A stretch of 63,623 nt of DNA, filler included. It is 4 parts of 4 records of this genome, joined end to end, with 100 filler letters (N's around TTAATTAATTAA, not from the genome) between each part and the next. Parts side by side here need not be neighbours in the genome. Positions count along the whole stretch, not along the records: positions 1 to 29,136 come from SRR20825006_2567; 3 more parts are not named here. One strand, given 5' to 3'. Under the pieces are notes generated by a model. It did no database searches and was not told the origin of the DNA. It saw only the letters and a list, made by a program, of their open reading frames with translations. Made by a program: the position numbers and the translations under genes. Positions 1-39,557 of the stretch are shown piece after piece (position 1 is the stretch's first letter; every line of letters starts with the position of its first letter).

Positions 1-367
1 ACGTTTTGTAGATATGAGCGCTCCTTATGATGCTGAAATGAACAAAAAACTAGAACAAGTTGCTTCCGAAAAAAACATAAAACTGCACAAAGGTGTTTAC
101 GCCAGCGTCGTTGGCCCTCAGTTGGAAACCCGTGCTGAATATAGGTTTTTAAAAATTATTGGAGCAGATGCTGTGGGTATGAGCACAGTGCCAGAAATTA
201 TTGTAGCCAACCATTTAAAAATACCAGTTGCAGCCGTTTCTGTTTTAACAGATGAGTGCGATCCAGATAATTTAAAACCTGTAGATATTGAAGATATTAT
301 TGCTTCAGCTGGAAAAGCAGAACCAGCAATGATAACTTTATTTACAGAACTGCTTAAACAACTTTAA
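1..367 (+). CDS. Purine-nucleoside phosphorylase (trimeric PNP/MTAP family), 5'-truncated
   Basis: Frame is open from the window start (RFVDMSAPYD). Motifs GPQLETRAE and ADAVGMSTVPE are typical of the PNP family. Confidence 0.9.
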   Translation, partial: RFVDMSAPYDAEMNKKLEQVASEKNIKLHKGVYASVVGPQLETRAEYRFLKIIGADAVGMSTVPEIIVANHLKIPVAAVSVLTDECDPDNLKPVDIEDIIASAGKAEPAMITLFTELLKQL

Positions 368-376
368 TAAATACTT

Positions 377-1345
377 ATGAGCTATTTAGAAACCACAAAC
401 GATGTATACAAACAAGCCGCATTAACTCCAGATGTGGGACTTTGCTGTACTACCAACCCTATTTGGGAACTTCCAGGTCTTAAAATTCCTAAAATTATGC
501 AAGAAATGAATTACGGATGCGGAAGTACTGTAAATGCAAGAGATCTTACCAACAACCCAAAAATGCTTTACGTAGGCGTTGGTGGCGGAATGGAGCTTTT
601 ACAGTTTTCGTATTTCAATAGGCAAAAAAGTGGTGTAATTGGCGTTGATACAGTTCCTGAAATGCTTGCCGCTTCTCAAAAAAATTTCAAAGAAGCTGAA
701 GCTATGAATCCATGGTTTAAAAGTGAATTTGTTGAGTTAAAAAAAGGCGATGCCTTAAATCTTCCAGTCGAAGATAACTCCATAGATGTAGCAGCTCAAA
801 ATTGTCTTTTCAATATTTTTAAAGCTGAAGATCTTAAAAAAGCTATTGAAGAAATGTACCGTGTTCTAAAACCACATGGCCGTTTGGTAATGAGCGACCC
901 TACGTGCGAGCAACAAATGAATGAAACTCTTCGTGAAGATTCACGCCTTCGTGCGCTTTGCTTAAGCGGTAGTCTTCCCATTGCAGAATATGTAAAAGCA
1001 TTGACCGATGTAGGTTTTGGAACTATTGAAATACGCGCCCGAAAGCCCTATAGAATTCTTGATCCAAAAAATTATCCAACGGAAGAACTCATTTATATAG
1101 AATCTATTGAAGTTGCTGCTATAAAAGACCCTATGCCAGAAGACGGACCTTGTGTTTTTACAGGAAAAGCTGCAATTTATTATGGAACTGAAAATCATTT
1201 TGATGATAAAAAAGGACATATTTTGCTTAAAAACCAACCTTTGGCTGTATGCGATAAAACTGCTGCTGCCCTCGCCAGTTTAAACCGAGACGATATTTAC
1301 ATCAGTGAATCAACCTTCCATTATGATGGTGGTGGATGCTGTTAA
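377..1345 (+). CDS. arsM: Arsenite S-adenosylmethionine methyltransferase (arsenosugar-biosynthesis type ArsM)
   Basis: SAM-binding motif VGVGGG, class I MTase motifs (LKPHGRLVMSD), Cys pattern LCC, YGCG, NCLFN, ALCLSG and C-terminal GGGCC. Confidence 0.85.
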   Translation: MSYLETTNDVYKQAALTPDVGLCCTTNPIWELPGLKIPKIMQEMNYGCGSTVNARDLTNNPKMLYVGVGGGMELLQFSYFNRQKSGVIGVDTVPEMLAASQKNFKEAEAMNPWFKSEFVELKKGDALNLPVEDNSIDVAAQNCLFNIFKAEDLKKAIEEMYRVLKPHGRLVMSDPTCEQQMNETLREDSRLRALCLSGSLPIAEYVKALTDVGFGTIEIRARKPYRILDPKNYPTEELIYIESIEVAAIKDPMPEDGPCVFTGKAAIYYGTENHFDDKKGHILLKNQPLAVCDKTAAALASLNRDDIYISESTFHYDGGGCC

Positions 1346-1399
1346 AACGTGTAATGAAACTTAAAATATCTCGTCTAAAAAAACACTAAAAACAAAATA

Positions 1400-2284
1400 T
1401 TGGAAAAATATTTAAATATCTTTTTTGAATCCTATAAAGGATATTTTAATTATCTATGGAGTGAAATAACCCATTTTCACTGGGAAAACTATTTCTATGG
1501 ATTAATACTTGTTTCCCTTATTGTTTGGACTTTAGAAATTATTTTTCCTTGGCGAAAAAATCAAAAGGTATTTAGAAAAGATTTTTGGCTGGACACTTTT
1601 TATATGTTCTTCAATTTCTTTTTACTGAATTTAATTGTGCTCATTTTCCTTTCAAACGCAACTGAAGCTTTGTTTAATGATTTACTCGCTAAAGTTGGAC
1701 TTTCGGTTGAAGGTTTTCAGGTTTTTGATGTAGACGCGCTACCTTTTGGGATAGGGCTTTTACTTTTTTTCCTTATTTCAGATTTTATTCAATGGAACAC
1801 CCATAGATTGCTTCATCGCATTCCTTTCCTTTGGAATTTTCACAAATTACACCATTCCGTAAAAGAAATGGGCTTTGCGGCGCATCTCCGGTATCATTGG
1901 ATGGAACCAATTGTTTACAAATCGTTGTTGTACATTCCGCTTGCCATTATTGGCGGTTTTGATGTGGAAGCTGTGGCAATTGTTCATTTTTCTGCGCTTG
2001 CTATTGGTCACCTTAATCACGCTAACCTGGGTTGGGACTATGGTTTTTTAAAATATATATTCAATAACCCGAAAATGCATATTTGGCATCACGCAAAAGT
2101 TCTGCCTAAAAACGCTCAATATGGTGTTAATTTCGGTATCAGTTTAAGTGTTTGGGATTATCTTTTTAGAACAAATCATATTCCCCACGACGGTAGAGAT
2201 ATTGATTTAGGTTTTGAAGACGATCAAAAATTTCCAAAGAAATTTATTTCTCAAATACTTTATCCCCTTAAAACTAAAAACTGA
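1400..2284 (+). CDS. Fatty acid hydroxylase / sterol desaturase family di-iron membrane enzyme
   Basis: His boxes HRLLH, HKLHHS, HLNH and HIWHH; NFG...WDYLF tail; hydrophobic segments; TTG start. Confidence 0.88.
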   Translation: MEKYLNIFFESYKGYFNYLWSEITHFHWENYFYGLILVSLIVWTLEIIFPWRKNQKVFRKDFWLDTFYMFFNFFLLNLIVLIFLSNATEALFNDLLAKVGLSVEGFQVFDVDALPFGIGLLLFFLISDFIQWNTHRLLHRIPFLWNFHKLHHSVKEMGFAAHLRYHWMEPIVYKSLLYIPLAIIGGFDVEAVAIVHFSALAIGHLNHANLGWDYGFLKYIFNNPKMHIWHHAKVLPKNAQYGVNFGISLSVWDYLFRTNHIPHDGRDIDLGFEDDQKFPKKFISQILYPLKTKN

Positions 2285-2320
2285 TTTTTTCCGTAAATAA
2301 ACTAAATAAAATAACTGAAA

Positions 2321-3124
2321 ATGAAAATCTTACTTAATTTTTCAACCATCATTTTGGCTTCATTTATAATGCAAAGCTGCAATCTTCTTTCAGCAGCAGG
2401 CATTAGCAGTCAAGGCCAACCCACTAAGGAAGTGAAAACTTCGTTAACTTCAACAACCGCAAATTCTGCCGTAAATGTAGATCATTCAGCGTGGGACAAG
2501 CTGCTAAAAAAGTATGTTAATGAGGAAGGTCTTGTAGATTATAAGGGTTTTAAAAAGGAGCAAGACCAATTAGCGCAATATTTGAATATGCTTTCAGAAA
2601 ATAATCCAACCGACGCCTGGAGCGTTCAAGAGCTACTTGCATACTACATTAATCTATATAATGCTGCAACGGTAAAACTTATTGTTGAAAATTACCCACT
2701 AAAAAGTATTAAGGATATTAACGGAGCTTGGACAAAAGGACGGGTTACAATTGGGGAAAATAACCTATCGCTAGGAGGCATTGAAAATGGAATTCTTCGG
2801 AAAATGAATGAACCAAGAATCCACTTTGCTATAAACTGCGCTTCTTTTTCTTGTCCAAAATTAATGAATGAAGCTTTTACTGCTTCCAAGATTAATGAAC
2901 AGTTGGATCGTGCCACAAAAGAGTTTATTAATAGCGACAAAAACGATATTTCTGCTACAAATCCTAGACTTTCATCCATTTTTGATTGGTATAAAAAAGA
3001 CTTTGAAGTAAACGGAAAACAGGATGTTATAGGCTATATAAATCAATATACTACAACCAAAATCAATCAAAACGCAAAAATTTCTTATAAAGATTACGAC
3101 TGGAATTTAAATGAATTAAAATAA
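2321..3124 (+). CDS. DUF547-family lipoprotein
   Basis: Lipobox-like MQSC. Motifs GLVDY, LAYYINLYNA, EPRIHFAINCASFSCP, SIFDWY and YDWNLN. Confidence 0.85.
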   Translation: MKILLNFSTIILASFIMQSCNLLSAAGISSQGQPTKEVKTSLTSTTANSAVNVDHSAWDKLLKKYVNEEGLVDYKGFKKEQDQLAQYLNMLSENNPTDAWSVQELLAYYINLYNAATVKLIVENYPLKSIKDINGAWTKGRVTIGENNLSLGGIENGILRKMNEPRIHFAINCASFSCPKLMNEAFTASKINEQLDRATKEFINSDKNDISATNPRLSSIFDWYKKDFEVNGKQDVIGYINQYTTTKINQNAKISYKDYDWNLNELK

Positions 3125-3152
3125 ATTTTTAAAAGAAATAGGAAGATTTTTA

Positions 3153-3857
3153 ATGATAAGTATCATCATTCCGGTTTTAAACGAAGCCAAAACATTAGCT
3201 GAATTTTTATCCCATCTCACGGAAAACATTTCTGGGAAATATGAGATTGAAATTATTTTGGTAGATGGTGGCAGTTCCGATAAAACCGAAGTAATCATTA
3301 ATAAATTCGCTGAAAGTAGTTCAATTCCAATTCAATTAATTTCTTCAGAAAAAGGTCGCGCAAAACAAATGAACCTTGGTTCACAAAAAGCTACGGGTGA
3401 AATATTATACTTTCTGCATGCAGATTCTTATCCGCCTAAAAATTTTGATATCTATATTAATTCCGAAGTAAACAAAGGAAATTCTGCGGGCTGTTTTAGA
3501 ATGAAATTTAACACCAATCAGTGGTGGCTAAAAATTTCAGGTTGGTTTACAAGATTCAACTGGCAAATATGTCGTGGCGGCGATCAAAGTCAATTTATCA
3601 CAAAAAGACTTTTTGAAGAAATTGGCGGTTTTGATGAAAAATACATAATTTATGAAGACAATATTTTAATTAAGGAACTTTATAAACGTAACAAATATGT
3701 AGTAATTCCACATACATTAACTACCTCTGCACGGTTGTATAACGAAAAAGGAGTTTGGACTATCCAGTACCATTTTTTGATGATTCATTTAAAAAAAAGG
3801 TTGGGAGCAAACGCTGAAGAACTTCACAAATATTATATAAAAAACATAAAAACATAA
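3153..3857 (+). CDS. GT2 glycosyltransferase, TIGR04283 (arsenosugar-cluster) type
   Basis: ISIIIPVLNE, VDGGSSD, GRAKQMNLG, YFLHADS, GGDQSQF, YED and TTSAR motifs; context next to arsM. Confidence 0.8.
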   Translation: MISIIIPVLNEAKTLAEFLSHLTENISGKYEIEIILVDGGSSDKTEVIINKFAESSSIPIQLISSEKGRAKQMNLGSQKATGEILYFLHADSYPPKNFDIYINSEVNKGNSAGCFRMKFNTNQWWLKISGWFTRFNWQICRGGDQSQFITKRLFEEIGGFDEKYIIYEDNILIKELYKRNKYVVIPHTLTTSARLYNEKGVWTIQYHFLMIHLKKRLGANAEELHKYYIKNIKT

Positions 3858-3880
3858 GCCTACTTAAATCAATTAAATTA

Positions 3881-4954
3881 TCAATCTGCATTGATAAAAT
3901 GTTTTTTTATAATTGCTTCTGCTGGTTTATTTTGAGGGGTAAACTGAGTGTTTTCAGCACCTCCAACCTCATCATGCGCAATAAACCATTTCCAAAGAAA
4001 TCCACCTGCAAACCAATCTTCTTTCCAAACAGTTTGATATAATCCGTCAAGTAAATTTACCTGAGCTTCCATATTTACAGCTGTCATTTCCCTATCGCTT
4101 TTCCAAGGTTCTTTACCAGAAAAATCAACACTTCGGTAGCCATATTCTGTGAAAATTATTTTTTTATTTTCTATTTCTGAAAAGGTTTTTAATTCCGTTT
4201 TCCATTGCTCCCAGCCAGAAATTGTTTCAGCAACAGTAGGCGTTTTTTCTTTTGAAATTGGAAAGTAAGCATCAACTCCAATAAAATCTAAAAGATCCCA
4301 AAATGGCACCCGTTTATATTCATCCCAATTGGCAGCATATGTAATTTTGCCTTTGTAAATGGCTCTAACATCTGAAATTAATTTTCGCCAATATTCTGGA
4401 CGATGGTCAATAAAATTTTCTAACTCAGTACCAATACAGAATATTTCTACATTTTCAGTTTCTGCAACCTTTGCAAATCCCATAATGAAATTTCGGTAAG
4501 AAACTTCAAGTTGTAACCAATCTTCCTCCGAAGCCATTTTTAATAAACCAGTAAATTCACCTCTATGAATCCAAATTTGAGGCTTTAGCATCACTTTTAT
4601 CTCGTTCGCATGAAGCATACTTATATATTGCTTAACACCCTGTTCTGTTTCGCCATACCATTGGCGTTCTTGGTTATAGATAACTTCAGGATGTTCCAAA
4701 CTTTTAATAAAAGCGAACGGCATTACAGCCGCATAATTGGTATGTATTTTTTTTAATGGAGAAACATTTTCAGGTTTTACAGGATCTCCCGAAGCAACAA
4801 AACTCACTCCATTTATTTTTGAAAAGTTTTTTTCAGCACTAATATTTTCGGAAAAATCTGATGTTGCTTCATCTGAAGTATCACGCTTTTGCGCACAACA
4901 ACTAAAAATTGAAAAAATAAATAAACAGACTACAAAACGATAGATTATACGCAT
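3881..4954 (-). CDS. Glycoside hydrolase family 113 (beta-mannanase-like) lipoprotein
   Basis: Signal peptide ending FSCC. VMLKPQIW, IGTEL, TYAANWD, IGVDAYFP, FTEYGY and GGFLWKW motifs with two candidate catalytic Glu. Confidence 0.8.
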   Translation of the reverse strand: MRIIYRFVVCLFIFSIFSCCAQKRDTSDEATSDFSENISAEKNFSKINGVSFVASGDPVKPENVSPLKKIHTNYAAVMPFAFIKSLEHPEVIYNQERQWYGETEQGVKQYISMLHANEIKVMLKPQIWIHRGEFTGLLKMASEEDWLQLEVSYRNFIMGFAKVAETENVEIFCIGTELENFIDHRPEYWRKLISDVRAIYKGKITYAANWDEYKRVPFWDLLDFIGVDAYFPISKEKTPTVAETISGWEQWKTELKTFSEIENKKIIFTEYGYRSVDFSGKEPWKSDREMTAVNMEAQVNLLDGLYQTVWKEDWFAGGFLWKWFIAHDEVGGAENTQFTPQNKPAEAIIKKHFINAD

Positions 4955-5078
4955 CTTTAAAAATATGATTGAATTTGGAGTTTTAATTTAGAATCAATGT
5001 AAATATTTTTTTTAACCTATCGCAATTGTAATTGTATAAATTTATATACGACTGAACAAAACAAGATCAAAAAAATTA

Positions 5079-6380
5079 ATGGAGCACATCGTCATCATAG
5101 GTAACGGCATTGCAGGAATTACCGCAGCGCGACATATTAGAAAACTTTCCGATAAAAAAATCACGATTATTTCTGCTGAAGCTGATCATTTTTTCTCCCG
5201 AACAGCTTTAATGTATGTTTATATGGGCCATATGCGCTGGCAAGATATTGAACCATACGAATCTTGGTTTTGGAAAAAAAATAGATTAGAACTCAAAAAT
5301 GCCTACGTTGAAACGGTTGATACAGCTAACCAAACACTTCATTTTAAAGAAGGGGGCTCGTTAACTTATGATAAACTAATCCTTGCTACAGGTTCTACAA
5401 CCAGCTACTATAATTGGGAAGGTCAAGATTTAAAAGGCGTTCAAGGCTTAATTTCAAAACAAGATTTAGAAAACTTAGAAAAGTTTGCACCTAACAACAA
5501 AGTTTGCCCACGTGCAGTAATTGTGGGCGGAGGATTAATCGGTGTTGAAATGGCAGAAATGCTAAAAACTCGAAATATTGAAGTAACAATGCTCGTGCGC
5601 GAAAGTGCTTTTTGGTCTGGAGTCCTCCCGAAACCAGAAGCTGAAATGATTTCTCGCCATATATTGTCGCATGGTGTAGACCTTCGCCACAATGAAGAGC
5701 TTGATAAAATTTTAAGTGATGCCAACGGAAATGTTCGCGCAGTACGCACCAAAAGCGGAGAAGAAATTTCTTGTAATGTTGTAGGAATTACCACAGGCGT
5801 AAAACCACAAATTTCATTTTTGGAAGGCTCGTCTATTGAAACTGACAGAGGTATTTTGGTAAACCGAATGCTTGAAACTAACATTAAGAACATATATGCT
5901 ATAGGTGATTGCGCGCAACAACGAGAGGCAATCGGCAACCGAGCACCCGTAGAAGCCGTTTGGTACACAGGCAGAATGATGGGGGAAGCACTTGCACAGA
6001 CTATTTGTGGGAATTCTTTTGAATACAAGCCTGGAAATTGGTTCAACAGTGCTAAATTCTTTGATATTGAATATCAAACGTATGGTTGGGTTTTTTCTGA
6101 AAGAAAAAAGAAAGATTATGAAGCACAATTTCACTGGAAATGTAAAAGTGATTTAAGGTGTATTACTATTTCATATAACAAAAACAATAACGAATTTTTA
6201 GGAATAAATACTTTCGGAATTAGAATGAGGCATGAGATTTTTGATCGCTGGCTAAATGAAAAAAGAAGTTTTGAATATGTAATTAAAAACTTAAAAGAGG
6301 CCAATTTTGATCCTGAATTTTATAAAAAATATGAAAAAGAAATTGAAACTGAATACAACAAAAATCTTATAACCGCCTAA
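5079..6380 (+). CDS. NAD(P)/FAD-dependent oxidoreductase (ferredoxin/rubredoxin reductase-like)
   Basis: GNGIAG FAD motif, LILATG, VGGGLIGVE NAD motif, IYAIGDCA. Confidence 0.88.
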   Translation: MEHIVIIGNGIAGITAARHIRKLSDKKITIISAEADHFFSRTALMYVYMGHMRWQDIEPYESWFWKKNRLELKNAYVETVDTANQTLHFKEGGSLTYDKLILATGSTTSYYNWEGQDLKGVQGLISKQDLENLEKFAPNNKVCPRAVIVGGGLIGVEMAEMLKTRNIEVTMLVRESAFWSGVLPKPEAEMISRHILSHGVDLRHNEELDKILSDANGNVRAVRTKSGEEISCNVVGITTGVKPQISFLEGSSIETDRGILVNRMLETNIKNIYAIGDCAQQREAIGNRAPVEAVWYTGRMMGEALAQTICGNSFEYKPGNWFNSAKFFDIEYQTYGWVFSERKKKDYEAQFHWKCKSDLRCITISYNKNNNEFLGINTFGIRMRHEIFDRWLNEKRSFEYVIKNLKEANFDPEFYKKYEKEIETEYNKNLITA

Positions 6381-6383
6381 TCT

Positions 6384-7973
6384 ATGAGCACACTACAAAG
6401 AAATATGTCGCTTACGGGCGAACCACCAAAAACAATAAATACCCAACAAAAGCTAGCGACATTACTTGGTATGTCGGGTCTATTTATTTTGGTTTTGGCA
6501 GCATTTAATGTCAATTTTCCTTATCAATCGGTGTGGCTCACAATTTCTTTAGGCTCAATCATCGGAGGCGTTGTTTGGTTTGCAAGAGTTGCTTATGCAA
6601 ATAAACATGAAGGCATAAAAAACGATGGAGTTTGGTTTAAATCAATTTCAAGTCGTGGTTTTCTAGCTTGGCTTTCCGGAATCGCTTTAACTGGTTTTTA
6701 TATAGTTTTATATTTCTTCCCGCAATATTTAGGTCTTTCACAAGAAGGAAGCAATACAGGTCTCATCGCTTTTTTCGACCCTCTAAGCAACCTACTAAAT
6801 GGAGGCCCCGCAAGCCAATGGTTTGTTTATGGAACACTTTATACCGTTGCAATTATCTCCTTCGGAATTAAATTTCTTTGGAAATATAAACACAACCGAT
6901 ACGAACGTTTACGTACTTTTTCAGTAATGTTTTTTCAACTTGGTTTTGCTTTTATCATCCCAGAATTGATGGCGCGATTAAACACAGATACTTTTTCCAT
7001 CCCGTATTATGATTTAAAAAATATCTGGCCCCTTAATTATTATAATTTTGAACAATATCGTGTAGATCAATTTATTTCTTCAGGAAATATCGGTCTTGCA
7101 TTATTAATTTTTGGAGTACTTTCAATTTTAGTGATTACGCCAATTTTAACATATAAATATGGAAAACGCTGGTACTGTAGTTGGGTTTGTGGCTGTGGAG
7201 GTCTTGCCGAAACTGCTGGAGATCCGTTTCGTCATTTAAGCGATAAACGCTTGGTGGCTTGGAAAGTTGAGCGCTGGGTTATACACAGTGTTTTGGTTTT
7301 TGTGGTGTTGATGACAACAGCCGTAATACACAGTTATTTGGGTGATGACACCTCTAAATATTGGCTTACAAAAGATACTTTACTAATTTCGGTTGCTACA
7401 CTTTTAACAATAGTTTTTGCGGGAACTTGGATTTTTAAAAGAGAAGAATTAAAAAAAGATGCCCGTTTAGGAGCTATTGGGTATTTCGTAATTATAGTTG
7501 CACTAATAGGTTTTCACTACTTTTCAGGAAAAACCTTATTCCTTTTTGAAGCAGAAACACTTCGAAAAACGTATGGTTTTTTAATTGGTTCCATTTTTAG
7601 TGGCGTTATTGGTACTGGCTTCTACCCCATTTTTGGGAGTCGTGTTTGGTGTCGTTTTGGTTGCCCAATGGCTGCAATTTTAGGGTTTCAGCAACGCCTA
7701 TTTTCAAAATTTAGAATTACAACTAACGGTGGGCAATGTATTTCCTGCGGAAATTGTTCTACCCATTGCGAAATGGGAATCGATGTGCGTGCTTATGCGC
7801 AAAAAGGTGAAAATATTGTACGTTCTAGTTGTGTTGGTTGTGGAATCTGCTCTGCAGTGTGCCCGCGTGGAGTTTTAAAACTTGAAAACGGTCCATTAGA
7901 AAAACGTATTGATAGCAATGAGGTTTTACTAGGCAATGATTTAGATTTAATGAATTATGTGAATAATAAATAA
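6384..7973 (+). CDS. Polytopic membrane 4Fe-4S protein (NapH/RdxA-like)
   Basis: Many TM segments, CSWVCGC and CRFGCP motifs, two C-terminal ferredoxin motifs (CISCGNCSTHC and CVGCGICSAVCP). Confidence 0.88.
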   Translation: MSTLQRNMSLTGEPPKTINTQQKLATLLGMSGLFILVLAAFNVNFPYQSVWLTISLGSIIGGVVWFARVAYANKHEGIKNDGVWFKSISSRGFLAWLSGIALTGFYIVLYFFPQYLGLSQEGSNTGLIAFFDPLSNLLNGGPASQWFVYGTLYTVAIISFGIKFLWKYKHNRYERLRTFSVMFFQLGFAFIIPELMARLNTDTFSIPYYDLKNIWPLNYYNFEQYRVDQFISSGNIGLALLIFGVLSILVITPILTYKYGKRWYCSWVCGCGGLAETAGDPFRHLSDKRLVAWKVERWVIHSVLVFVVLMTTAVIHSYLGDDTSKYWLTKDTLLISVATLLTIVFAGTWIFKREELKKDARLGAIGYFVIIVALIGFHYFSGKTLFLFEAETLRKTYGFLIGSIFSGVIGTGFYPIFGSRVWCRFGCPMAAILGFQQRLFSKFRITTNGGQCISCGNCSTHCEMGIDVRAYAQKGENIVRSSCVGCGICSAVCPRGVLKLENGPLEKRIDSNEVLLGNDLDLMNYVNNK

Positions 7974-8055
7974 TTAAAGGTTTTATATATAATCAAGCAG
8001 TCCTTTTTAATTCTATTTTTCTGAACTTCGCAATCCATAAACTCAGTAGTTTTTA

Positions 8056-8757
8056 ATGACCAAAAATATTAAAGTAATCATCCCCGCTTATAATGAAGAG
8101 AAATCTATTGGAAAAGTCATTGAAGCGATTCCAAATAGTGTTTCAGAGATTATTGTTGTCAATAACAATTCTAGCGATTCTACTGCTGAAGTAGCAACAA
8201 AAGCTGGCGCTACGGTGCTTTTTGAGCCAAATGCTGGCTATGGAAATGCTTGCTTAAAAGGAATGGACTACATTTCTGGTTTAGTTCCCGAAAAGCAACC
8301 AGACATTATAGTTTTTCTTGATGGCGATTATAGTGATTATCCTTCTGAATTGACTAAAATTGTTGCGCCTATTATTGATGAGAATATAGATTTTGTAGTT
8401 GGCGCACGAGTAAAAGAATTACGCGAAGACGGATCAATGACATTTCCGCAACGCTTCGGAAATAAGCTAGCAACTACATTGATGACGCTTTTTTTCGGAT
8501 CAACATTTACAGACCTTGGACCCTTTCGTGCTATAAAATACAACAAACTTCTAGCCTTGGAAATGCAAGACAAAACATATGGCTGGACGGTAGAAATGCA
8601 ACTAAAAGTTTTAAAAAAGAAATTCACTTATGTTGAAATACCTGTAAATTATAGAAACCGAATAGGTGTTTCAAAAGTTTCGGGTACAGTAAAAGGTGCT
8701 ATATTTGCTGGCATTAAAATTCTAAGCTGGATTATAAAATACAGTTTCAAAAAATGA
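8056..8757 (+). CDS. GT2 glycosyltransferase (polyprenol-phosphate glycosyltransferase/DPM1-like)
   Basis: VIIPAYNEE, NAGYGNA, FLDGD, VVGAR, TDLGPFRAI and RIGVSKV motifs. Confidence 0.85.
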   Translation: MTKNIKVIIPAYNEEKSIGKVIEAIPNSVSEIIVVNNNSSDSTAEVATKAGATVLFEPNAGYGNACLKGMDYISGLVPEKQPDIIVFLDGDYSDYPSELTKIVAPIIDENIDFVVGARVKELREDGSMTFPQRFGNKLATTLMTLFFGSTFTDLGPFRAIKYNKLLALEMQDKTYGWTVEMQLKVLKKKFTYVEIPVNYRNRIGVSKVSGTVKGAIFAGIKILSWIIKYSFKK

Positions 8758-10244
8758 TTCTTGAATCTATAATCATCATAATTTATTCTATTGCCCTTCT
8801 CCTCATATTTATGTATGCTTTGGCGCAATTAAACCTGCTTTTTAATTATTTGAAAGCACGAAAAAAGCAGCAAACAGGACCCACTTTCAATTTTTCTAAT
8901 GAAAAAGAAATTCCTTTAGTTACAATTCAGTTGCCAGTTTACAATGAACTTTATGTAATGGATCGGCTGTTAAAAAACATTGCTGAGATTGATTATCCTA
9001 CAGAGAAATTAGAAATACAAGTACTTGATGATAGCACAGATGAATCGCTTGCAGAGACTGCAATACACATTCGTGAGCTTCAAAAAACTGGCTTAGATAT
9101 AAAACATATTACTAGAGAGAATCGCGAAGGTTTTAAAGCGGGTGCGTTAAAAGAAGGGTTGATAACTGCAAAAGGAGAATATATTGCAATATTTGATGCA
9201 GATTTTCTTCCTAAGAAAAATTGGTTAAAAAACACAGTTCCCTATTTTAAAGACCCAAAAATAGGAGTGGTTCAAACCCGTTGGGGACACTTAAACCGTG
9301 ATTATTCAATCCTTACTCGAATACAAGCTTTTGCATTAGATGCGCATTTTACGCTAGAACAAGTAGGTAGAAACAGCAAAGGGCATTTTATAAACTTCAA
9401 TGGAACTGCTGGTGTTTGGAGAAAAGAATGCATCCTCGATGCCGGAAACTGGGAAGGCGACACCCTTACTGAAGATTTAGATTTAAGTTATAGAGCGCAA
9501 CTAAAAAAATGGAAATTTAAGTATTTAGAGGAAGTTGTAACGCCTGCAGAACTTCCTATGGTAATTAGTGCAGCGCGTTCACAGCAATTTAGGTGGAATA
9601 AAGGAGGAGCTGAAAACTTTCAGAAAATGGCTTGGCGTGTTTTTAAAAGCAAAAATGTTTCACGTAAAACTAAAATACATAGTTTTTTGCATCTGCTAAA
9701 TAGCACAATGTTTTTGAATATTTTAATCGTTGCCATTTTAAGCATTCCTATGCTGTATATTAAAAATGAATACGACCATTTAAAAGTGTATTTTTTTGCA
9801 ATGAGCTTTTTTGTAATAAGCACCCTCATCTTTTTTATATGCTATTGGTTTACTTTTAAAACTATTTATGGCGGAGGATTTAAGCAATTCTTGAAGTATA
9901 TTGGAATGTTTTTCGCATTTTTTTCTGTTGCTATGGGATTTTCATTACATAATTCTATAGCCGTCCTAGAAGGACATTTTGGAAAGCGGAGTGATTTTAT
10001 TCGAACTCCAAAATTTAATATCGATAGCTTAAAAGGCAGTTGGAAAGACAATAAATACTTAACCAAAAATATTTCATCAAGTGTAATTATTGAAGGAATA
10101 TTAATGCTTTATTTTGCTTTTGGAATGTATAGCGCTTTTATTGTAGGCAATCAAGGAGGCGATTTTGGTTTATTTCCTTTTCACTTAATGCTTTGTGTTG
10201 GATTTGGATTTGTATTTTTCTCCTCTTTAAAATCTCCAGATTAA
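8754..10244 (+). CDS. Processive GT2, cellulose-synthase-like (CslA/CslC-like)
   Basis: VTIQLPVYNE, QVLDDSTD, GFKAGAL, IFDADF, FNGTAGVWR, TEDLDL and QQFRW (D,D,D,QxxRW); C-terminal TM helices; ATGA overlap with the upstream GT2. Confidence 0.88.
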   Translation: MILESIIIIIYSIALLLIFMYALAQLNLLFNYLKARKKQQTGPTFNFSNEKEIPLVTIQLPVYNELYVMDRLLKNIAEIDYPTEKLEIQVLDDSTDESLAETAIHIRELQKTGLDIKHITRENREGFKAGALKEGLITAKGEYIAIFDADFLPKKNWLKNTVPYFKDPKIGVVQTRWGHLNRDYSILTRIQAFALDAHFTLEQVGRNSKGHFINFNGTAGVWRKECILDAGNWEGDTLTEDLDLSYRAQLKKWKFKYLEEVVTPAELPMVISAARSQQFRWNKGGAENFQKMAWRVFKSKNVSRKTKIHSFLHLLNSTMFLNILIVAILSIPMLYIKNEYDHLKVYFFAMSFFVISTLIFFICYWFTFKTIYGGGFKQFLKYIGMFFAFFSVAMGFSLHNSIAVLEGHFGKRSDFIRTPKFNIDSLKGSWKDNKYLTKNISSSVIIEGILMLYFAFGMYSAFIVGNQGGDFGLFPFHLMLCVGFGFVFFSSLKSPD

Positions 10245-10250
10245 CGTATT

Positions 10251-11171
10251 TTATTTTCTTGTAGATGAAATAAATTGCTGTGGAGTCATTAATTCTAATT
10301 TTTTAAATTGACGGTTAAAATAGCTCACATTATTAAATCCTGATTTAAATGCAATTTCAGAAATAAGCATATTTTTATTTTCTTTCATCAACCTTTTAGC
10401 AAATTTAATTTTTTCAGAATTCATAAAATCTATTGGTGATATTCCTAATGTGTTTTTAAATTTTTTATGAAAACTGGAAGAACTCATAAAAGCTTTTGCA
10501 GCCAATTGTTCAACATTTATACTCCGATCGGTTAAATTTTCCTTTATATACTTTACTACAGAGCCAATTCGTGTATCATTAAAAATATCTAAGGTATCGT
10601 TTAGAATACTTTGCTTGGCTTTGGTTTGAAGTAAACGTACTATCAATTCCTGAATCATTAAATCTAACAATACATCTTTTGAAGTTGAATTGTGTGTAAA
10701 AGTGGTAAGCAATCGGTCTATTAAATAATTTACTTCTAATTGATTTGTTAAATGTGATGCAGTCCCTTTATCTAAATTCCAATTGTTGTTTTCGTCTTCA
10801 ATAGCCACCAATTGATTGAATTTAAAAGCAACCTCATTTATTTTTTCAGGATCTATACCTAATGCCAAACATTGAGTTGGACTATCAGGCCTTGCAATAG
10901 GAAAATCAATAATCATCTCCTCATTAGCAGGCATTACTACAGATTCTCCTGGTAAAAATTCAAAATCGGGTATGTTTTTTAAATGCATAATTTTTTTTCC
11001 AGTAAGCATACTTGCTATTACAGGAAACTCGAATGTAAGCGAAATTTTTTCTGCCATTTTATGAGTTTCAAAAACATTCAGCTCTGCATAGGCAGCATTA
11101 TAAGTAGTGCGATTTTCTACCAGAGTATAAATTTTACGGCTTTCTCTATGTTTTCGAAGGGAATGATTCAT
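10251..11171 (-). CDS. AraC-family transcriptional regulator
   Basis: C-terminal HTH pair (SFHKKFKNTLGISP; IAFKSGFNNVSYFNRQFKK). ATG at 11171 preferred over the longer ORF start. Confidence 0.9.
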   Translation of the reverse strand: MNHSLRKHRESRKIYTLVENRTTYNAAYAELNVFETHKMAEKISLTFEFPVIASMLTGKKIMHLKNIPDFEFLPGESVVMPANEEMIIDFPIARPDSPTQCLALGIDPEKINEVAFKFNQLVAIEDENNNWNLDKGTASHLTNQLEVNYLIDRLLTTFTHNSTSKDVLLDLMIQELIVRLLQTKAKQSILNDTLDIFNDTRIGSVVKYIKENLTDRSINVEQLAAKAFMSSSSFHKKFKNTLGISPIDFMNSEKIKFAKRLMKENKNMLISEIAFKSGFNNVSYFNRQFKKLELMTPQQFISSTRK

Positions 11172-11321
11172 ACTCAATATTACGAAAAAATCAGCTATAC
11201 CAAACACAAATGCAGAAATGTGTTATGTTTTGACAGAATCGTTCAATTAATTATTGAAATATCAAAATATCTTTAGAAAAATTATAATAATCACATTATT
11301 AACCTTTTAAAATTAATTTTT

Positions 11322-12845
11322 ATGAGCAATATTCAAACAGATACAGGAAAAACATTTGAAAAACCAAAATTTAAAGATACCTATGACAATTTTATAGGTG
11401 GAAAATGGGTTGCACCTACAAAGGGTGAATACTTTGAAAGCATATCGCCTGTAGATGGAAATAAATTTACAAAAGTAGCTCGTTCATCAGAAGAAGATAT
11501 AGATAAAGCTATTGATGCCGCATGGGAAGCAGCAGCAAGTTGGAATAAAACATCTGCAACAGTAAGAAGTAATATGCTTCTTAAAATAGCCGATAAAATT
11601 GAACAAAATATTGAAATTTTGGCAAGAGCAGAAACATGGGATAATGGGAAACCCTTACGTGAAACTACAGCTGCGGATCTTCCGTTGGCAGTAGATCATT
11701 TTCGTTATTTTGCAGGAGTAATTCGTGCTGAAGAAGGCGGTGCTAGTGAGCTTGATGAAAATACAGTCTCCCTTAATATTTGGGAGCCATTAGGTGTGGT
11801 AGGGCAAATAATACCTTGGAATTTCCCACTTTTAATGGCAACTTGGAAACTTGCTCCGGCTTTAGCTGCAGGAAACTGTGTTGTATTAAAACCCGCTGAG
11901 CAAACCCCTGTTGGCATCATGATTCTTGCAGAATTAATACAAGATATTCTTCCTGCAGGCGTACTAAATATTGTAAATGGGTTTGGCCTAGAAGCAGGAA
12001 AGCCATTAGCATCAAGTTCGCGAATTAATAAAATTGCCTTTACTGGCGAAACAACTACAGGTCAGTTAATAATGCAATATGCTTCAAAAAATATCATCCC
12101 AGTTACTTTAGAGCTTGGTGGGAAATCCCCAAATATCTTCTTTAAAAGTATTATGGATGCAGATGATGACTTCTTTGATAAAGCAATTGAGGGCGCTGTA
12201 CTTTTCGCATTTAACCAAGGAGAAGTCTGTACAAGCCCATCACGGATTTTGATAGAAGAAAGCATTTATGAAGACTTTATAACCCGCGTTGTTGAACGAA
12301 CAAAAGCAATAAAAATTGGTCATCCTTTAGATCCAGAAACCATGATGGGAGCACAAGCATCTAGCGACCAATTTGAGAAAATATTAAACTATCTTAAAAT
12401 TGGAAAAGAAGAAGGATGTGAAATATTAACCGGAGGTGATGCCGCATACAATGAAGGATTAGAAGGTGGCTATTATGTGCAACCAACCATTTTTAAAGGC
12501 AATAATAAAATGAGAGTGTTTCAAGAAGAAATTTTCGGTCCTGTGGTATGTGTTACTACCTTTAAAGATGAAAAAGAAGCAATTGAAATAGCAAACGATA
12601 CATTATATGGCTTAGGTGCAGGTGTATGGACACGAGATATGCACCAAGCTTATCAAGTTGCAAGGCAAGTTAAAGCAGGCCGTGTTTGGGTAAATAATTA
12701 TCATGCATATCCAGCACACGCTCCTTTTGGTGGTTATAAAAAATCTGGAATTGGTCGAGAAAACCATAAAATGATGTTAGATCATTACAGGCAAACTAAA
12801 AACATGTTAATCTCCTATGATAAAAAGAAACTAGGCTTCTTTTAA
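11322..12845 (+). CDS. aldB: Aldehyde dehydrogenase (AldB/acetaldehyde dehydrogenase type)
   Basis: [39 protein letters not shown] and [13 protein letters not shown] motifs. Confidence 0.9.
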
Positions 12846-29136: not shown

Positions 29137-29236
29137 NNNNNNNNNNNNNNNNNNNNNNNNNNNNNNNNNNNNNNNNNNNNTTAATTAATTAANNNNNNNN
29201 NNNNNNNNNNNNNNNNNNNNNNNNNNNNNNNNNNNN
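29137..29236. other. Artificial contig linker
   Basis: 44 N + TTAATTAATTAA (stops in all six frames) + 44 N; genes are cut on both sides and composition changes. Confidence 0.97.
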
Positions 29237-30118
29237 GCACATTTTCGACTGATCGACGCACATATTGAGAATCGCGGTATAGAGTTCCGGGTCCACAGCA
29301 CTAAAGTGGTGAACCGGCTCATCGATGCTTGGTTTTTCAAGCTCAAGATACTGGGAACGACCAAGGAAGTTCTCGTCCGCCTTCACATCATTGACCCAGT
29401 TATCAAACCCTTCCTGGCTCAGACCGTGGAACTTGAAGCGCATATGAGAGAAACCCTCACCGCTATAGTTCCCCGAAAAGCCGTCATAAATGCCTTCTTC
29501 GTTGATCACGGCGTGGAGTTTGGTTTCCATGCCCGCCATCGAATAAATCTGGCCCGCAAGAGCCGGAATAAAGAAGGAGTTCATAATGCCCGAAGAGGTA
29601 ATCTTGAACTGGATCGGGGTATCAATCGGAGCAGCAAGCTCGTTAACGGTTGCAATACCCTGTTCCGGATAGACAAACAGCCATTTCCAATCAAGGGAAA
29701 CAACTTCCACCACCATCGGCTTGTGGCCTTTGGGCAATGGACGTTCGGCATCAATGCGGTCAAGCGGACGATACGGGTCAAGCGTATGCGTCGTTACCCA
29801 GGTAATCGCGCCAAGTGCGATAATGATTACCAATGGTGCAGACCAGATGATGACTTCCAGTTTTGTGGAATGGTGCCATTCGGGATCGTATTCAGCATCC
29901 TGGTTGCTCTGACGGTATTTCCAGGCAAAGAAAACCGTAAGTGCCATCACCGGAACAATGATCAGCAGCATCAAGATTGTGGACACAATAATCAGGTCGG
30001 ACTGCTGTGACGCAATATCACCCGACGGGTCGATCACAACCAGATTGCAACCGCCCAGAAGCGAAAACATCGAGGCAACAGCCACGCCGCGTACAAGTTT
30101 TGAAAGCATGCGCTTCAT
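29237..30118 (-). CDS. cyoA: Cytochrome bo3 ubiquinol oxidase subunit II, 3'-truncated
   Basis: Lipobox LLGGC, YDPEWHHSTKLEVIIW, LDWKWLF, MNSFFIPALAGQIYSMAGM and NYSGEGFS; no CuA Cys pair. Start at 30118 or 30109. Confidence 0.95.
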
Positions 30119-30560
30119 ACTTTGTCTGTTTCTGGAAGATGTTCTCACAGACAACCATATGCCTGCAAGCCGCATGAACGATCCATCGGAGACCGCCACA
30201 CGTCGTACCCCACCGCATCGCATATAGGAATGAACATCCTAAACATCCACGGAAAAGGCACAATTTTGGCAAATTTTTTTCAATAATCTACCAGATCGTA
30301 ATTTCGCGGAAATTGCTATAGCTGCGATGCAGCAATGTCAAGGTATGCGCCATGCATAGCAGGGTCTCAATGACAATTATCATTACAACGTAAACCATAC
30401 GTTGTGCGGTGCAGGATGATAATTGACACTGACGTTTTGAATTCACATGTTTATACTCAGACTCGATCCCAAAGTCGTATCGCCGAGCGATCCGGTTTTG
30501 TGATCCAATCAAAAGCAGTTAGGACCGAAAAGGTCCGACCAGTGAATTCGGGAGAACGGC

Positions 30561-31901
30561 GTGAACCAAACACCAGAAAACTACGCGACCGCCACCTCTT
30601 CAGGTTTGGAACGCGATGCGCGGCATCACAATGCCGACGCCACCAACGATCCGGGTCAAATTGCGCTTGGCGTGATTATTGGCCGGACATCGGAATTCTT
30701 TGACTTTTTCGTCTATTGCATCGCATCGGTACTGGTCTTCCCGCAATTGCTGTTCCCCGGCGAAACGGCACTTGTGGGCACCATGTATTCCTTTGCCATT
30801 TTCTCGTTGGCTTTCATCGCCCGCCCTGTCGGCTCCCTCGTCTTTATGACCGTAGACCGGCATCATGGCCGTGGGGTAAAGCTCACAATTGCGATGTTCA
30901 TGCTCGGTGGATCAACCGCGGCCATGGCCTTCCTGCCAAGCTTTGAGTCAGCTGGCATTCTTGCGATTTATCTGCTCTGTACCTTCCGCTTCCTGCAGGG
31001 TCTTGCATGGGGTGGTGCATGGGATGGCCTGTCATCCCTGCTCGCCCTTAATGCGCCGGACAACCGCAAGGGCTGGTATGCGATGATCCCGCAATTGGGT
31101 GCTCCGCTTGGCTTCATGCTGGCATCGTCGCTGTTTGCCTATTTGATCCTGACCTTGCATCCCGATGACTTCCTTGCCTTTGGCTGGCGCTATGCGTTCT
31201 TCGTGGCCTTTGCCATTAACGTGGTGGCGCTGTTTGCCCGCCTGCGCCTTGTGGCAACCTCGGAATTCGGCCATCTGCTTGAACAGAATGAACTCGAACC
31301 GGCCCGCGTGATCGATACCCTTAAACATAACGGTCGCACCGTTGTTCTGGGTGCCTTGGTCCCGATGGTCAGCTACGCACTGTTCCATCTCGTCACGGTC
31401 TTTGCGCTCAGCTGGGTCTATCTTTATGCCAATGGCAATGCCGGGCAGTTCCTTTTGACTCAGGGCGTTGGCGCTGTGCTCTGTGCCTTTGGCATCGTTG
31501 CATCGGGCTTCATTGCCGATCAGCTCGGCCGTCGCCGTTTGCTGGGCTACAGTGCCGGGATCATCCTGCTTGGTGCCATCCTCACCCCGCTTCTTTATTC
31601 CTTCAACATCATCAATGAAGGCATGATTGTACTGGGTGGCTTTGCTGTTCTTGGCCTGTGCTTTGGTCAGGCTGCCGGAACGCTGGCATCAAACTTCAAG
31701 CGCGAATACCGCTATACCGGTTCGGCCCTTACATCGGATCTGGCATGGCTGCTTGGTGCCGGTTTTGCCCCGCTGATCGCACTTTATCTGTGTGACAAGT
31801 TCGGCCTGCCCGGTGTGGGTGCCTATCTGATGTCCGGTGCAGTTGTCACCTTGGTAGTCCTGCAATTCAACAAACAGTTCGGTGCCAAAACCACCGACTG
31901 A
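30561..31901 (+). CDS. MFS metabolite:H+ symporter (MHS family) divergent from cyoA
   Basis: EFFDFFVY, ARPVG, DRHHGR and RFLQGLAWGG motifs; about 12 TM segments; GGAGA RBS before the GTG. Confidence 0.9.
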   Translation: MNQTPENYATATSSGLERDARHHNADATNDPGQIALGVIIGRTSEFFDFFVYCIASVLVFPQLLFPGETALVGTMYSFAIFSLAFIARPVGSLVFMTVDRHHGRGVKLTIAMFMLGGSTAAMAFLPSFESAGILAIYLLCTFRFLQGLAWGGAWDGLSSLLALNAPDNRKGWYAMIPQLGAPLGFMLASSLFAYLILTLHPDDFLAFGWRYAFFVAFAINVVALFARLRLVATSEFGHLLEQNELEPARVIDTLKHNGRTVVLGALVPMVSYALFHLVTVFALSWVYLYANGNAGQFLLTQGVGAVLCAFGIVASGFIADQLGRRRLLGYSAGIILLGAILTPLLYSFNIINEGMIVLGGFAVLGLCFGQAAGTLASNFKREYRYTGSALTSDLAWLLGAGFAPLIALYLCDKFGLPGVGAYLMSGAVVTLVVLQFNKQFGAKTTD

Positions 31902-31922
31902 GTGCGAAAACATCTTGAATTC

Positions 31923-31955
31923 AAACACCCCCGATCATTGGTCGGGGGTGTTTTT
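31923..31955 (+). terminator. Rho-independent terminator
   Basis: AAACACCCCCGA...TCGGGGGTGTTTTT after the MFS stop. Confidence 0.85.
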
Positions 31956-32118
31956 GTTCAAAAGGAAATATAGCGAACACAACGCGAAACGATGGTCAAT
32001 CCTGACATATTCTGGCAACCAGGTTCATTTCGTTGTTCGCTTCGGAACATTCTGTTACCGCTATTGCCAACAGACACACTATCTATCTGTATAGCGTCAC
32101 ATGATCGGATGAAAACGA

Positions 32119-33966: not shown

Positions 33967-33997
33967 TCAATTCTAAACACGCACATCATCCAAAATC

Positions 33998-34031
33998 AAA
34001 ACACCCCGGCCATACCAGCCGGGGTGTTTTT
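33998..34031. terminator. Rho-independent terminator (possibly bidirectional)
   Basis: AAAACACCCCGGC...GCCGGGGTGTTTTT between convergent genes. Confidence 0.85.
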
Positions 34032-34165
34032 CATGCAGTAGGTGATTACGGCAACCTCAACCAGACAGCGCCAAAAAACCAATCCTATGGCACGCCCCCC
34101 GACATACCTTGGAAAGCCACGACCGGTTAAGGCCGTGAAACGATCTGGTGAGGTTGCCGCCTCCC

Positions 34166-34858
34166 TTAAACGTAATTGGACGGGAACATCGCGCGTTTGG
34201 CGTCTTCGTCCATTTCAGTCTTAAAGCTGTGGCCTTTGCCAACATCGCGCGCGCTGATCGCTGCCGGAAGTTGGTTGACGGCATCAAACCAGCGTTTGAT
34301 GTTCGGATATTTGTCCATCACATCCGGGTTTTTATGAACGAAGGGTGCCTTGTCGATCCAGCCCCATGCCGAAATATCAACAATCGTCAACGCGTCACCA
34401 ACGATGAAATCGCGACCAGCAAGATGATCTTCAAGAACCTGATAGTGGCGGGCGATTTCATTGCGATAGCGGTTTAGGCCATATTCGCTGCCTTCGGGTG
34501 CGACATGCTGAAAATGCACAGCCTGACCGGAAAACGGACCAAGACCCGTGGCAATGAACATCAACCATGACAGAAACTCGCCGCGGTCTTCTGCCTTACC
34601 AAGGAATTTGCCCGTTTTTTCCGCGAGATAAAGCAAGATCGCATTCGAATCAAAAACACGAACTTCCTTGCCACCCGGGCCATCAGTATCAACAATCGCC
34701 GGCAATTTGCCATTCGGATTGATCAAACGAAACGCCGGGTCGTGTTGTTCGCCTTTGCGGCTATCAACCGGCAGCACTTCATATTCAAGTCCGGATGCTT
34801 CAAGCATCATCGAGATTTTCTGCGGGTTTGGCGTCGGATGAAAATAGAAACGGATCAT
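34166..34858 (-). CDS. Glutathione S-transferase (Nu-class/YfcG-like)
   Basis: TPNPQK, INPNGKLPAIVD, FDSNAILLYLAEK and TIVDI motifs. Confidence 0.9.
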   Translation of the reverse strand: MIRFYFHPTPNPQKISMMLEASGLEYEVLPVDSRKGEQHDPAFRLINPNGKLPAIVDTDGPGGKEVRVFDSNAILLYLAEKTGKFLGKAEDRGEFLSWLMFIATGLGPFSGQAVHFQHVAPEGSEYGLNRYRNEIARHYQVLEDHLAGRDFIVGDALTIVDISAWGWIDKAPFVHKNPDVMDKYPNIKRWFDAVNQLPAAISARDVGKGHSFKTEMDEDAKRAMFPSNYV

Positions 34859-35012
34859 AAATGGTCTCCTTGCAGGTCAACGAATTTACACAAAACCGTG
34901 ACCCGGCATTGCTTTCTGGAATGATCGTTTTAAATTGACCGATAACACAGCAATTGGCAAGCTTCGTTTATTAATATTGCCACCAGACAAGAGTTAAAGG
35001 AGCCTCTGGCCC

Positions 35013-35711: not shown

Positions 35712-35717
35712 ACACAT

Positions 35718-35751
35718 AAAAAAGCCCCCGCTCTGCCATCAAAGCGGGGGC
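35718..35751 (-). terminator. Rho-independent terminator for the MCP gene
   Basis: GCCCCCGCT/AGCGGGGGC stem preceded by an A-run, giving a U-tract on the minus strand. Confidence 0.7.
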
Positions 35752-35770
35752 CACATCAAGATTGTGCAAA

Positions 35771-37474: not shown

Positions 37475-37732
37475 AACCGGTATCCAAGCACATCGGACAA
37501 ATCGGTAACTTATTGATATTTTTTGTATTTTATCAGGAAGAGCAGCTATTTAAAGTGGCGTTCCCGCAAGAACATATCAACCGACAGATAAATAATTTTA
37601 TAACATTCGGCATATGCCTTATCTGTGATTACAATCACTCATAAGCACATTTCTGAACGGCAAAATAAGACCCGAAAACAAAGGATTGCCGTACAAGAAC
37701 CAAAGCAGAAAGACATCCGCAAAGGCATATTT

Positions 37733-38947: not shown

Positions 38948-38969
38948 TCGCCGGGGATTTAACTTCGCC

Positions 38970-39485: not shown

Positions 39486-39557
39486 GCTCCAAAACCGCTC
39501 AAAAGACCCGCGTGCAACACAAGTTTAAATTTTTGATTGCGTTGCACATCACGCCCG

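Follow-up and report, generated by a model that had tools for sequence, protein, structure and literature searches.

A locus at the beginning of the DNA stretch analysed here (the window, 63,623 nucleotides in four joined contigs) most likely belongs to an operon whose product, made from arsenite, is an arsenosugar-type dimethylarsinoyl-riboside. We read window positions 2-3857 as the distal half of a nine-gene operon encoding TIGR04169, ArsS, a rhodanese, TIGR04282, a purine nucleoside phosphorylase (PNP), the arsenite methyltransferase ArsM, a fatty-acid hydroxylase (FAH), a DUF547 protein and TIGR04283. This arrangement and the arsenoriboside product are proposed jointly, with moderate confidence. 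The new element is a PNP lineage that is dedicated to the cluster and carries Ile in place of His257, which points to PNP as the candidate adenine-removing step. In itself, the window operon is nothing unusual: it belongs to a widespread cluster that databases already name.

The arsM locus and its upstream half

The four contigs of the window are joined by N44-TTAATTAATTAA-N44 spacers at 29137-29236, 42051-42150 and 57580-57679. The locus of interest lies on contig 1 (1-29136), whose first letter falls within the PNP gene. The first-pass annotation had described the operon as truncated at position 1; what cuts it there is the end of the contig, and the PNP open reading frame (ORF) at 2-367 is open at its 5′ end. 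The five co-directional, tightly spaced genes that the first pass had reported at 2-3857 were all found as plus-strand ORFs, with intergenic gaps of 9, 54, 36 and 28 nt, and a convergent gene starts 23 nt further on (Table 1). Family calls were made with Pfam and NCBIfam models at their curated cut-offs, and two families of the arsenosugar gene set, ArsM (NF038099) and TIGR04283, scored above them in the window. ArsM was 99% identical to the ArsM of Aequorivita sp. Q41. Its S-adenosylmethionine (SAM)-binding Rossmann domain matched Methyltransf_11, Methyltransf_31 and Methyltransf_25, and in an alignment to CmArsM (4kw7) the Cys of the yGCGst, sNC and eCLgG motifs were kept (CL(S/G)G in the third motif), corresponding to the three As(III)-binding cysteines, which we take to be C72, C174 and C224 of CmArsM. 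No arsR, acr3/arsB or arsC was found among the ORFs of contig 1, nor an ars resistance operon, as had been noted at first pass. In region 1-11400, 41 promoter-like sites (42.2 in shuffled sequences) and 12 terminator-like sites (7.2 in shuffled sequences) were counted, none of them informatively placed.

Using ArsM as query on genome contigs, we obtained at least 597 relatives, of which the best 80 were kept as loci L001-L080. The locus of Aequorivita sp. Q41 (L001) was colinear with window positions 2-11349 at 92.7% nucleotide identity. Upstream it contained, in this order, an AhpD-like TIGR04169 protein with a CPYC motif (193.7 bits, cut-off 120), ArsS of TIGR04167 (435.8 bits, cut-off 300), located 2 kb upstream and carrying a CX3CX2C motif and a C-terminal Cys cluster, a rhodanese of NF045521 (199.7 bits, cut-off 145), TIGR04282/DUF2064 (215.7 bits, cut-off 134) and a full-length PNP at 9173-9991 (342.5 bits on the trimeric PNP model, cut-off 218). 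The arsS and TIGR04282-type genes that the first pass had proposed to look for upstream were thus both present directly upstream in this colinear relative.

The gene set was conserved among the relatives. The 80 loci were searched by tblastn (E ≤ 1e-10, query coverage of at least 50%), and presence was counted beside ArsM; several loci end at contig ends. PNP and TIGR04282 accompanied ArsM in all 80 loci, followed by DUF547 (68/80), rhodanese (67/80), ArsS (65/80), the AhpD-like protein (64/80) and TIGR04283 (60/80). FAH was found in 36 of the 80. Linkage of the five genes is far above chance expectation. Gene order was not constant: loci L007, L039, L043 and L077, for example, showed the rearranged order PNP-AhpD-ArsS-TIGR04282-ArsM, which is that of Leeuwenhoekiella, and Tenacibaculum presented FAH-TIGR04282-PNP-ArsM. 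PNP was retained in the set despite these rearrangements. Two families were often multiplied. TIGR04282 was frequently doubled around the rhodanese (TIGR04282-rhodanese-TIGR04282) with diverged copies (L003, L008, L015, L017, L048, L054, L058 and the L157 region), and many genomes carried two to five DUF547 genes, a diverged second copy often lying on the opposite strand just past a glycoside hydrolase family 113 (GH113) gene (L012, L013, L015-L017, L028, L030 and others). In Aquimarina (L014), four DUF547 genes stood in tandem.

We also examined 201 genomes drawn evenly from the family of G001; the titles of the 80 loci name Flavobacteriaceae genera. ArsS was detected in 158 of these genomes, ArsM in 131, PNP in 183, an FAH homologue (E ≤ 1e-60) in 147 and DUF547 in 152, and every one of the 131 ArsM-positive genomes also had ArsS. 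Any FAH was present in 141 of the 158 ArsS-positive genomes and in 6 of the 43 ArsS-negative ones, and the corresponding figures for DUF547 were 144/158 and 8/43, indicating that both travel with the ArsS set. PNP, DUF547 and the hydroxylase thus proved to be associated with arsM/arsS across the 80 loci and the family sample, the conserved linkage that the first pass had proposed to test. FAH matches formed two classes, one with at least 62% identity (FAH-A, 63 genomes) and one with 49-59% (FAH-B, the remainder). Since two genomes (G143 and G120) carry both, FAH-A and FAH-B are paralogues, and the reading that FAH had been relocated in genomes with only 49-59% matches was rejected. In 59 of the 63 genomes, FAH-A had ArsM or PNP no more than 7 kb away: ArsM in 48 of them and, in 11 that are ArsM-negative, PNP as its immediate neighbour. 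The remaining copies were on another contig (two) or distant (two, at 19 kb and 1.5 Mb). FAH-B is far from the cluster yet nearly confined to ArsS-positive genomes (for example G003:C2:497550-498422 and G005:C1:1151516-1152385).

A cluster-type lineage of purine nucleoside phosphorylase

The PNP fragment in the window, which scored 143 bits on the trimeric PNP family model over its 121 aa, contains VLTDECDPDNLKPVDIEDII, with Asp at the column of Asn243 and Ile at that of His257. The His257 column was set by alignment to the sHEEv motif of PDB 8swt and 8swu, with the human PNP sequence, as we take it to be, as a further basis; no paper was found for codes 8SWT and 8SWU in open-access PMC and bioRxiv. 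PNPs from genomes lacking the cluster were stand-alone genes with 44-52% identity to the cluster PNP, while cluster-type PNPs had 65-87%. In a quick IQ-TREE analysis (106 rows), 12 stand-alone PNPs separated from 94 of cluster type with a support of 100 on both sides in the Shimodaira-Hasegawa-like approximate likelihood ratio test (SH-aLRT). The 94 comprised 87 PNPs in clusters, five in clusters without ArsM and two standing alone. G054 carries one PNP of each lineage, and its cluster-type copy alone lies in the cluster. The cluster-type PNPs of ArsM-negative genomes stood among cluster genes in five of seven cases (G015, G022, G042, G050 and G006), the other two being the stand-alone copies of G043 and G032.

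The two lineages differed at the His257 column. All 12 distinct stand-alone PNPs have His there, and the 97 distinct cluster-type PNPs have Ile in 96 cases and Leu in one; the window PNP reads KPVDIEDII at this column and so has Ile in place of the His of trimeric PNPs. According to PMC4308819, His257 hydrogen-bonds the 5′-OH of the ligand, and PMC9916683 lists His257 in the active site and attributes to Asn243 the restriction of trimeric PNPs to 6-oxopurines. At the Asn243 column, Asp was seen throughout, both in the window fragment and in each of the 109 distinct flavobacterial PNPs that were compared. This Asp was considered as a marker of cluster PNPs and rejected, given that PNPs of genomes without the cluster have it too. 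A base pocket compatible with adenine and a hydrophobic 5′ pocket fit what is expected for a 5′-deoxy-5′-substituted adenosine such as 5′-deoxy-5′-dimethylarsinoyl-adenosine (DDMAA), and the same features would also suit 5′-deoxyadenosine. In these traits the cluster PNP resembles MTAP, with which it shares the PF01048 fold and family and a hydrophobic residue in the 5′ pocket, and which presumably also has Asp at the Asn243 site; unlike MTAP, the best model for the L001 protein is of PunA type (342 bits), the MTAP model giving 92 bits against a cut-off of 275. The earlier suggestion that PNP removes adenine thus gains support from the separate lineage and from the loss of the His that binds the 5′-OH, as judged from the alignments.

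Proposed pathway and alternative explanations

In the route that we propose, ArsM would methylate As(III) to dimethylated trivalent arsenic, DMAs(III), and ArsS, a radical SAM enzyme, would add a 5′-deoxyadenosyl group to give DDMAA. Both steps are known from other organisms; ArsS of Synechocystis converts DMAs(III) to DDMAA (PMC13598754). The cluster PNP, to judge from its Asp and Ile residues, would then split DDMAA by phosphorolysis into adenine and 5-deoxy-5-dimethylarsinoyl-alpha-ribose-1-phosphate. Family 2 glycosyltransferases (GT2) use a nucleoside diphosphate (NDP)-sugar donor, not ribose-1-phosphate. The first-pass scheme, in which PNP gives a ribose-1-phosphate and the glycosyltransferase then attaches arsenoribose, was not supported in this respect, and the ribose-1-phosphate from PNP would need activation. 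This activating step is probably the task of the upstream nucleotidyltransferase-like TIGR04282, which may convert arsenoribose-1-phosphate to NDP-arsenoribose; its only matches are PDB 3cgx, a 'putative nucleotide-diphospho-sugar transferase' (89.5 bits), and, weakly, the CofC guanylyltransferase. TIGR04283, as a putative inverting GT2, would finally transfer arsenoribose to an acceptor to form a beta-riboside. Natural arsenosugars have the beta-riboside configuration. The hydroxylase, the DUF547 lipoprotein and a redox/GT2 operon at 5079-10244 would be accessory and, speculatively, may tie the product to envelope lipids. The rhodanese, which in the relatives has a signal-like N-terminus and looks exported, was considered as an Acr2-type arsenate reductase; this was not supported, given its six-residue CSLGIR loop as against CX5R and its signal-like N-terminus.

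The general logic has precedents. In the hopanoid route, the radical SAM enzyme HpnH adenosylates diploptene, HpnG (PF01048) removes adenine and the glycosyltransferases HpnI/HpnB follow; MqnE/MqnB of the futalosine route obey the same logic as HpnH/HpnG. By analogy, the flavobacterial operon would combine radical SAM adenosylation, adenine removal by a member of the PNP superfamily that leaves a ribosyl adduct, and GT2s. Superfamily matches were weak and all far below cut-offs (PNP fragment to HpnG, E 4e-5; ArsS to HpnH, E 6e-7; GT2s to HpnB/HpnI). Unlike in the hopanoid route, the families are different, the acceptor would be arsenic and not a triterpene, and PNP is of the trimeric PunA type and not of the HpnG type. 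The closest known system is the ArsM-ArsS pathway of Synechocystis sp. PCC 6803, which the cluster resembles through ArsM and TIGR04283 in the window and through ArsS, TIGR04169, TIGR04282 and rhodanese in L001; unlike it, the flavobacterial form adds the PNP lineage, a membrane FA-hydroxylase, DUF547 and often the redox/GT2 operon. NCBIfam labels NF038099, TIGR04167, TIGR04169, TIGR04282, TIGR04283 and NF045521 'arsenosugar biosynthesis'. With its core families named there and most genomes of the family sample carrying it, the cluster cannot be called rare or new. In open-access PMC and bioRxiv, we found no paper assigning enzymes to the steps after DDMAA, no published role for the cluster PNP, FA-hydroxylase, DUF547 or redox/GT2 operon, no demonstration of an arsenosugar in these bacteria, and no paper linking purine nucleoside phosphorylase with arsS, arsM or arsenosugar. 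There, the TIGR families of the cluster came up only in passing, as annotations, and on arsenosugars in Flavobacteria we found nothing beyond one algal review.

The lipid part of the first-pass interpretation fared less well. It had the hydroxylase tailor a lipid aglycone and a membrane glycolipid as product, which was not supported: FAH lies in the cluster in fewer than half of the 80 loci and DUF547 is predicted to be exported. FAH is an integral membrane protein with four hydrophobic segments and the His boxes HRLLH, HKLHH and HIWHH (HX3H, HX2HH, HX2HH), and scored far above the PF04116 gathering threshold of 31 bits. It resembles OlsE and the bacterial sterol desaturases of that family in being a di-iron His-box membrane enzyme; unlike OlsE, it reached only 90.3 bits on the equivalog NF052566 (cut-off 475), and a comparison with PDB sequences gave no match and hence no solved relative by sequence. 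Three FAH homologues carry one in-frame stop (G199:C1:510832-511716, TGA; G117:C27:127390-128274, TGA; G094:C1:759074-759940, TAG), which may mark a pseudogene or a sequencing error and, in the two TGA cases, might instead encode selenocysteine. The N-terminus of DUF547 is lipoprotein-like, and the protein keeps a cysteine pair, NCAS-x-SCP, that is conserved. Its AlphaFold2 model (predicted local distance difference test score 91.5) gave no Foldseek match in the PDB at E ≤ 0.001 and a best Z of 4.8 in a wide VIA-align search, indicating a fold without a solved relative. An ESM Atlas search with DUF547 and FAH returned only their own families. Altogether, the first-pass interpretation was right in kind and overstated the novelty and the role of lipids. 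That most marine Flavobacteriaceae make arsenoribosides by an undescribed route, in which an MTAP-like PNP, TIGR04282 and TIGR04283 act and the product is placed onto envelope lipids by the FA-hydroxylase, DUF547 and redox/GT2 genes, is a tentative extension that we consider doubtful.

Several observations weigh against the arsenoriboside proposal. The window itself lacks the upstream half owing to the contig end. The Fisher tests for FAH and DUF547 against ArsS (p ~1e-20) ignore shared ancestry, and the exported rhodanese and DUF547 protein (both predicted) fit poorly with a purely cytoplasmic pathway. Asp at the Asn243 column does not discriminate, being common to every flavobacterial PNP that we examined. 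Five genomes were checked for all PF01048 matches; each had the cluster PNP and one weak match of ~290 aa, and apart from G002, which has an extra 143-bit match, none had a second high-scoring PNP. PNP is also usually single-copy in the family sample, so the cluster PNP may also, or only, serve purine salvage. ArsM, moreover, is often missing. NF038099 ArsM was absent from 27 of the 158 ArsS-positive family genomes, and in 11 genomes PNP abuts FAH at the exact place of ArsM. In a phylum sample of 301 genomes, ArsS was found in 110 and ArsM above the NF038099 cut-off in 18 (17 of them ArsS-positive), with weak ArsM-like matches in 21 more (10 ArsS-positive), leaving about 83 of the 110 ArsS-positive genomes without ArsM at E ≤ 1e-30. 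When 40 phylum-level ArsS loci (±10 kb) were scanned with hidden Markov models built from the 80 loci, the commonest layout was AhpD-ArsS-TIGR04282-TIGR04283. The AhpD-like protein was present in 34 loci, TIGR04282 in 24, TIGR04283 in 20, ArsM in 8, PNP in 6, DUF547 in 5, rhodanese in 4 and FAH in 1, so PNP is not a universal step of the pathway. The layout of the window is the standard one for its family and not the universal form.

ArsM was precisely absent from otherwise intact ArsS clusters in L103 (G042), L102 (G022), L101 (G015) and L107 (G050), and further intact clusters of this kind occurred in G102, G104, G088, G138, G060, G129, G168, G122 and G200. In such clusters PNP abuts FAH or the redox operon. 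The PNP of G042 is a near twin of that of Aequorivita vladivostokensis, yet G042 lacks ArsM and constitutes a natural ArsM-minus comparison strain. The control genome of Synechococcus elongatus had ArsS and TIGR04283 matches and no NF038099 ArsM match at E ≤ 1e-30. Strains without ArsM either use external methylated arsenic or have a core whose substrate range is wider than its name. Of the first-pass interpretation, the membership of the genes in the ArsS/ArsM 'arsenosugar' set is supported; the many clusters without ArsM leave an arsenic role for the set as a whole on weaker ground than its names imply.

These clusters also speak for a different view, that the ArsS/TIGR04282/TIGR04283 core is not in essence arsenical: it would adenosylate and then ribosylate another nucleophile, ArsM being a late optional add-on in Flavobacteriaceae, and the window operon would make a 5-substituted riboside conjugate that contains no arsenic and is destined for the envelope. 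G042, a close sister of an ArsM-bearing Aequorivita, fits this view, and the exported partners and the membrane GT2 module would indicate the envelope. We nevertheless judge it unlikely, because the Synechocystis enzyme adenosylates DMAs(III) and flavobacterial ArsS proteins score 430-450 bits on the same TIGR04167 equivalog model, because no ArsM-positive family genome lacks ArsS, and because ArsM retains its As-binding cysteines; moreover, methylated arsenic in seawater could feed the ArsM-less strains.

A second alternative concerns PNP, which would be a plain purine-salvage enzyme or a scavenger of the by-product 5′-deoxyadenosine, kept beside ArsM by inherited synteny and with no role in the product. 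Its low copy number, its presence in so many family genomes, including 16 of 20 listed ArsM-negative ones, and the two cluster-type PNPs without cluster genes nearby (G043 and G032) are consistent with this, and the change from His to Ile/Leu would suit 5′-deoxyadenosine as well. It appears quite improbable when set against the persistence of PNP in all 80 loci through several rearrangements, a lineage apart from the stand-alone PNPs (with both in G054) and the uniform replacement of the 5′-OH-binding His, which is unexpected in an ordinary inosine, guanosine or adenosine phosphorylase. Finally, the set could let algae-degrading flavobacteria take up the organoarsenicals of algae (arsenosugars, DMA) and salvage or remodel them, in place of de novo synthesis. 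This reading would account for the exported rhodanese, the DUF547 lipoprotein(s), the GH113 lipoprotein beside the operon and the ArsM-less variants, and is very improbable given that ArsS makes the C-As bond, that ArsM, the nucleotidyltransferase-like protein and the GT2 are of anabolic types and that the conserved set in the window includes no transporter.

Neighbouring genes and significance

Table 1. Genes of the arsM locus and the adjacent region of the window
Gene product	Position	Strand	Basis and remarks
PNP, C-terminal 121 aa, trimeric type, cluster lineage	2..367	+	PF01048 103 bits; PRK08202 143 bits, positions 154-273 of 274
ArsM, arsenosugar-type arsenite S-adenosylmethionine methyltransferase, 322 aa	377..1345	+	NF038099 570.3 bits (cut-off 400), positions 1-321 of 321
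FAH-A, integral-membrane di-iron FA_hydroxylase/sterol-desaturase family, 294 aa, TTG start	1400..2284	+	PF04116 93 bits
DUF547 protein, lipoprotein-type signal (Cys20), 267 aa	2321..3124	+	PF04784 95 bits
TIGR04283, soluble GT2, 234 aa, final operon gene	3153..3857	+	226.2 bits (cut-off 182); no hydrophobic segment
GH113-family glycoside hydrolase, signal/lipoprotein N-terminus, convergent to operon	3881..4954	-	PF22612 151 bits
FAD/NAD(P) pyridine-nucleotide-disulfide-type oxidoreductase (PyrRedox), first gene of second operon	5079..6380	+	Pfam/NCBIfam
Polytopic membrane 4Fe-4S protein (Fer4, NapH-like), ~8 hydrophobic segments	6384..7973	+	Pfam/NCBIfam
GT2a, small soluble, polyprenyl-/dolichyl-phosphate sugar synthase-like (AglJ-like)	8056..8757	+	TIGR04182 115 bits, below cut-off 325
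GT2b, membrane GT2 (PgaC/cellulose-synthase-like), 5 hydrophobic segments	8754..10244	+	Overlaps GT2a by 4 nt

Downstream of the five genes, the GH113 glycoside hydrolase is a frequent neighbour of ArsM (43/80 loci) and a possible accessory of the operon. The second operon was also recurrent, PyrRedox being present in 36 of the 80 loci, the Fer4 membrane protein in 28, GT2a in 23 and GT2b in 17, although many loci stop short of the GT2b position. It directly follows PNP in G015 and G050, and PyrRedox and the Fer4 membrane protein each adjoin ArsS in 7 of the 40 phylum-level loci. This redox/GT2 operon is probably part of the same system as the ArsS set.

Contig 1 ends in a gcvP gene truncated at 29136. 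The GC contents of the contigs were 0.35, 0.52 and 0.39, contig 1 lying at ~0.35. Contig 2 (29237-42050), at ~0.52, has a proteobacterial look in its genes (cyoA, zigA, tspO and GST-like genes, and one for a methyl-accepting chemotaxis protein). The bin is probably mixed or contaminated. Regions 56341-57057 and 51207-52379 of contig 3 encode BshB1, a bacillithiol deacetylase (295 bits, cut-off 182.5), and a GT4 with weak similarity to BshA. Four sequencing runs contain the stretch (share 0.99-1.00), with no RNA run listed among them.

Arsenosugar phospholipids, some with acyl-ether glycerols, have been reported from ocean particles, 'suggesting a bacterial source' in the words of that preprint (bioRxiv 10.1101/2021.03.22.436501). 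The cluster, which most of the sampled Flavobacteriaceae carry, is an obvious candidate for such a source and, if the tentative extension to envelope lipids given above is true, heterotrophic bacteria would be an overlooked origin of oceanic arsenosugar (ether) phospholipids. The clusters without ArsM warn that the name 'arsenosugar biosynthesis' may reach wider than knowledge. The operon offers concrete, clonable candidates for the pathway steps after DDMAA, and the His-to-Ile change of its PNP is a specific, testable signature.

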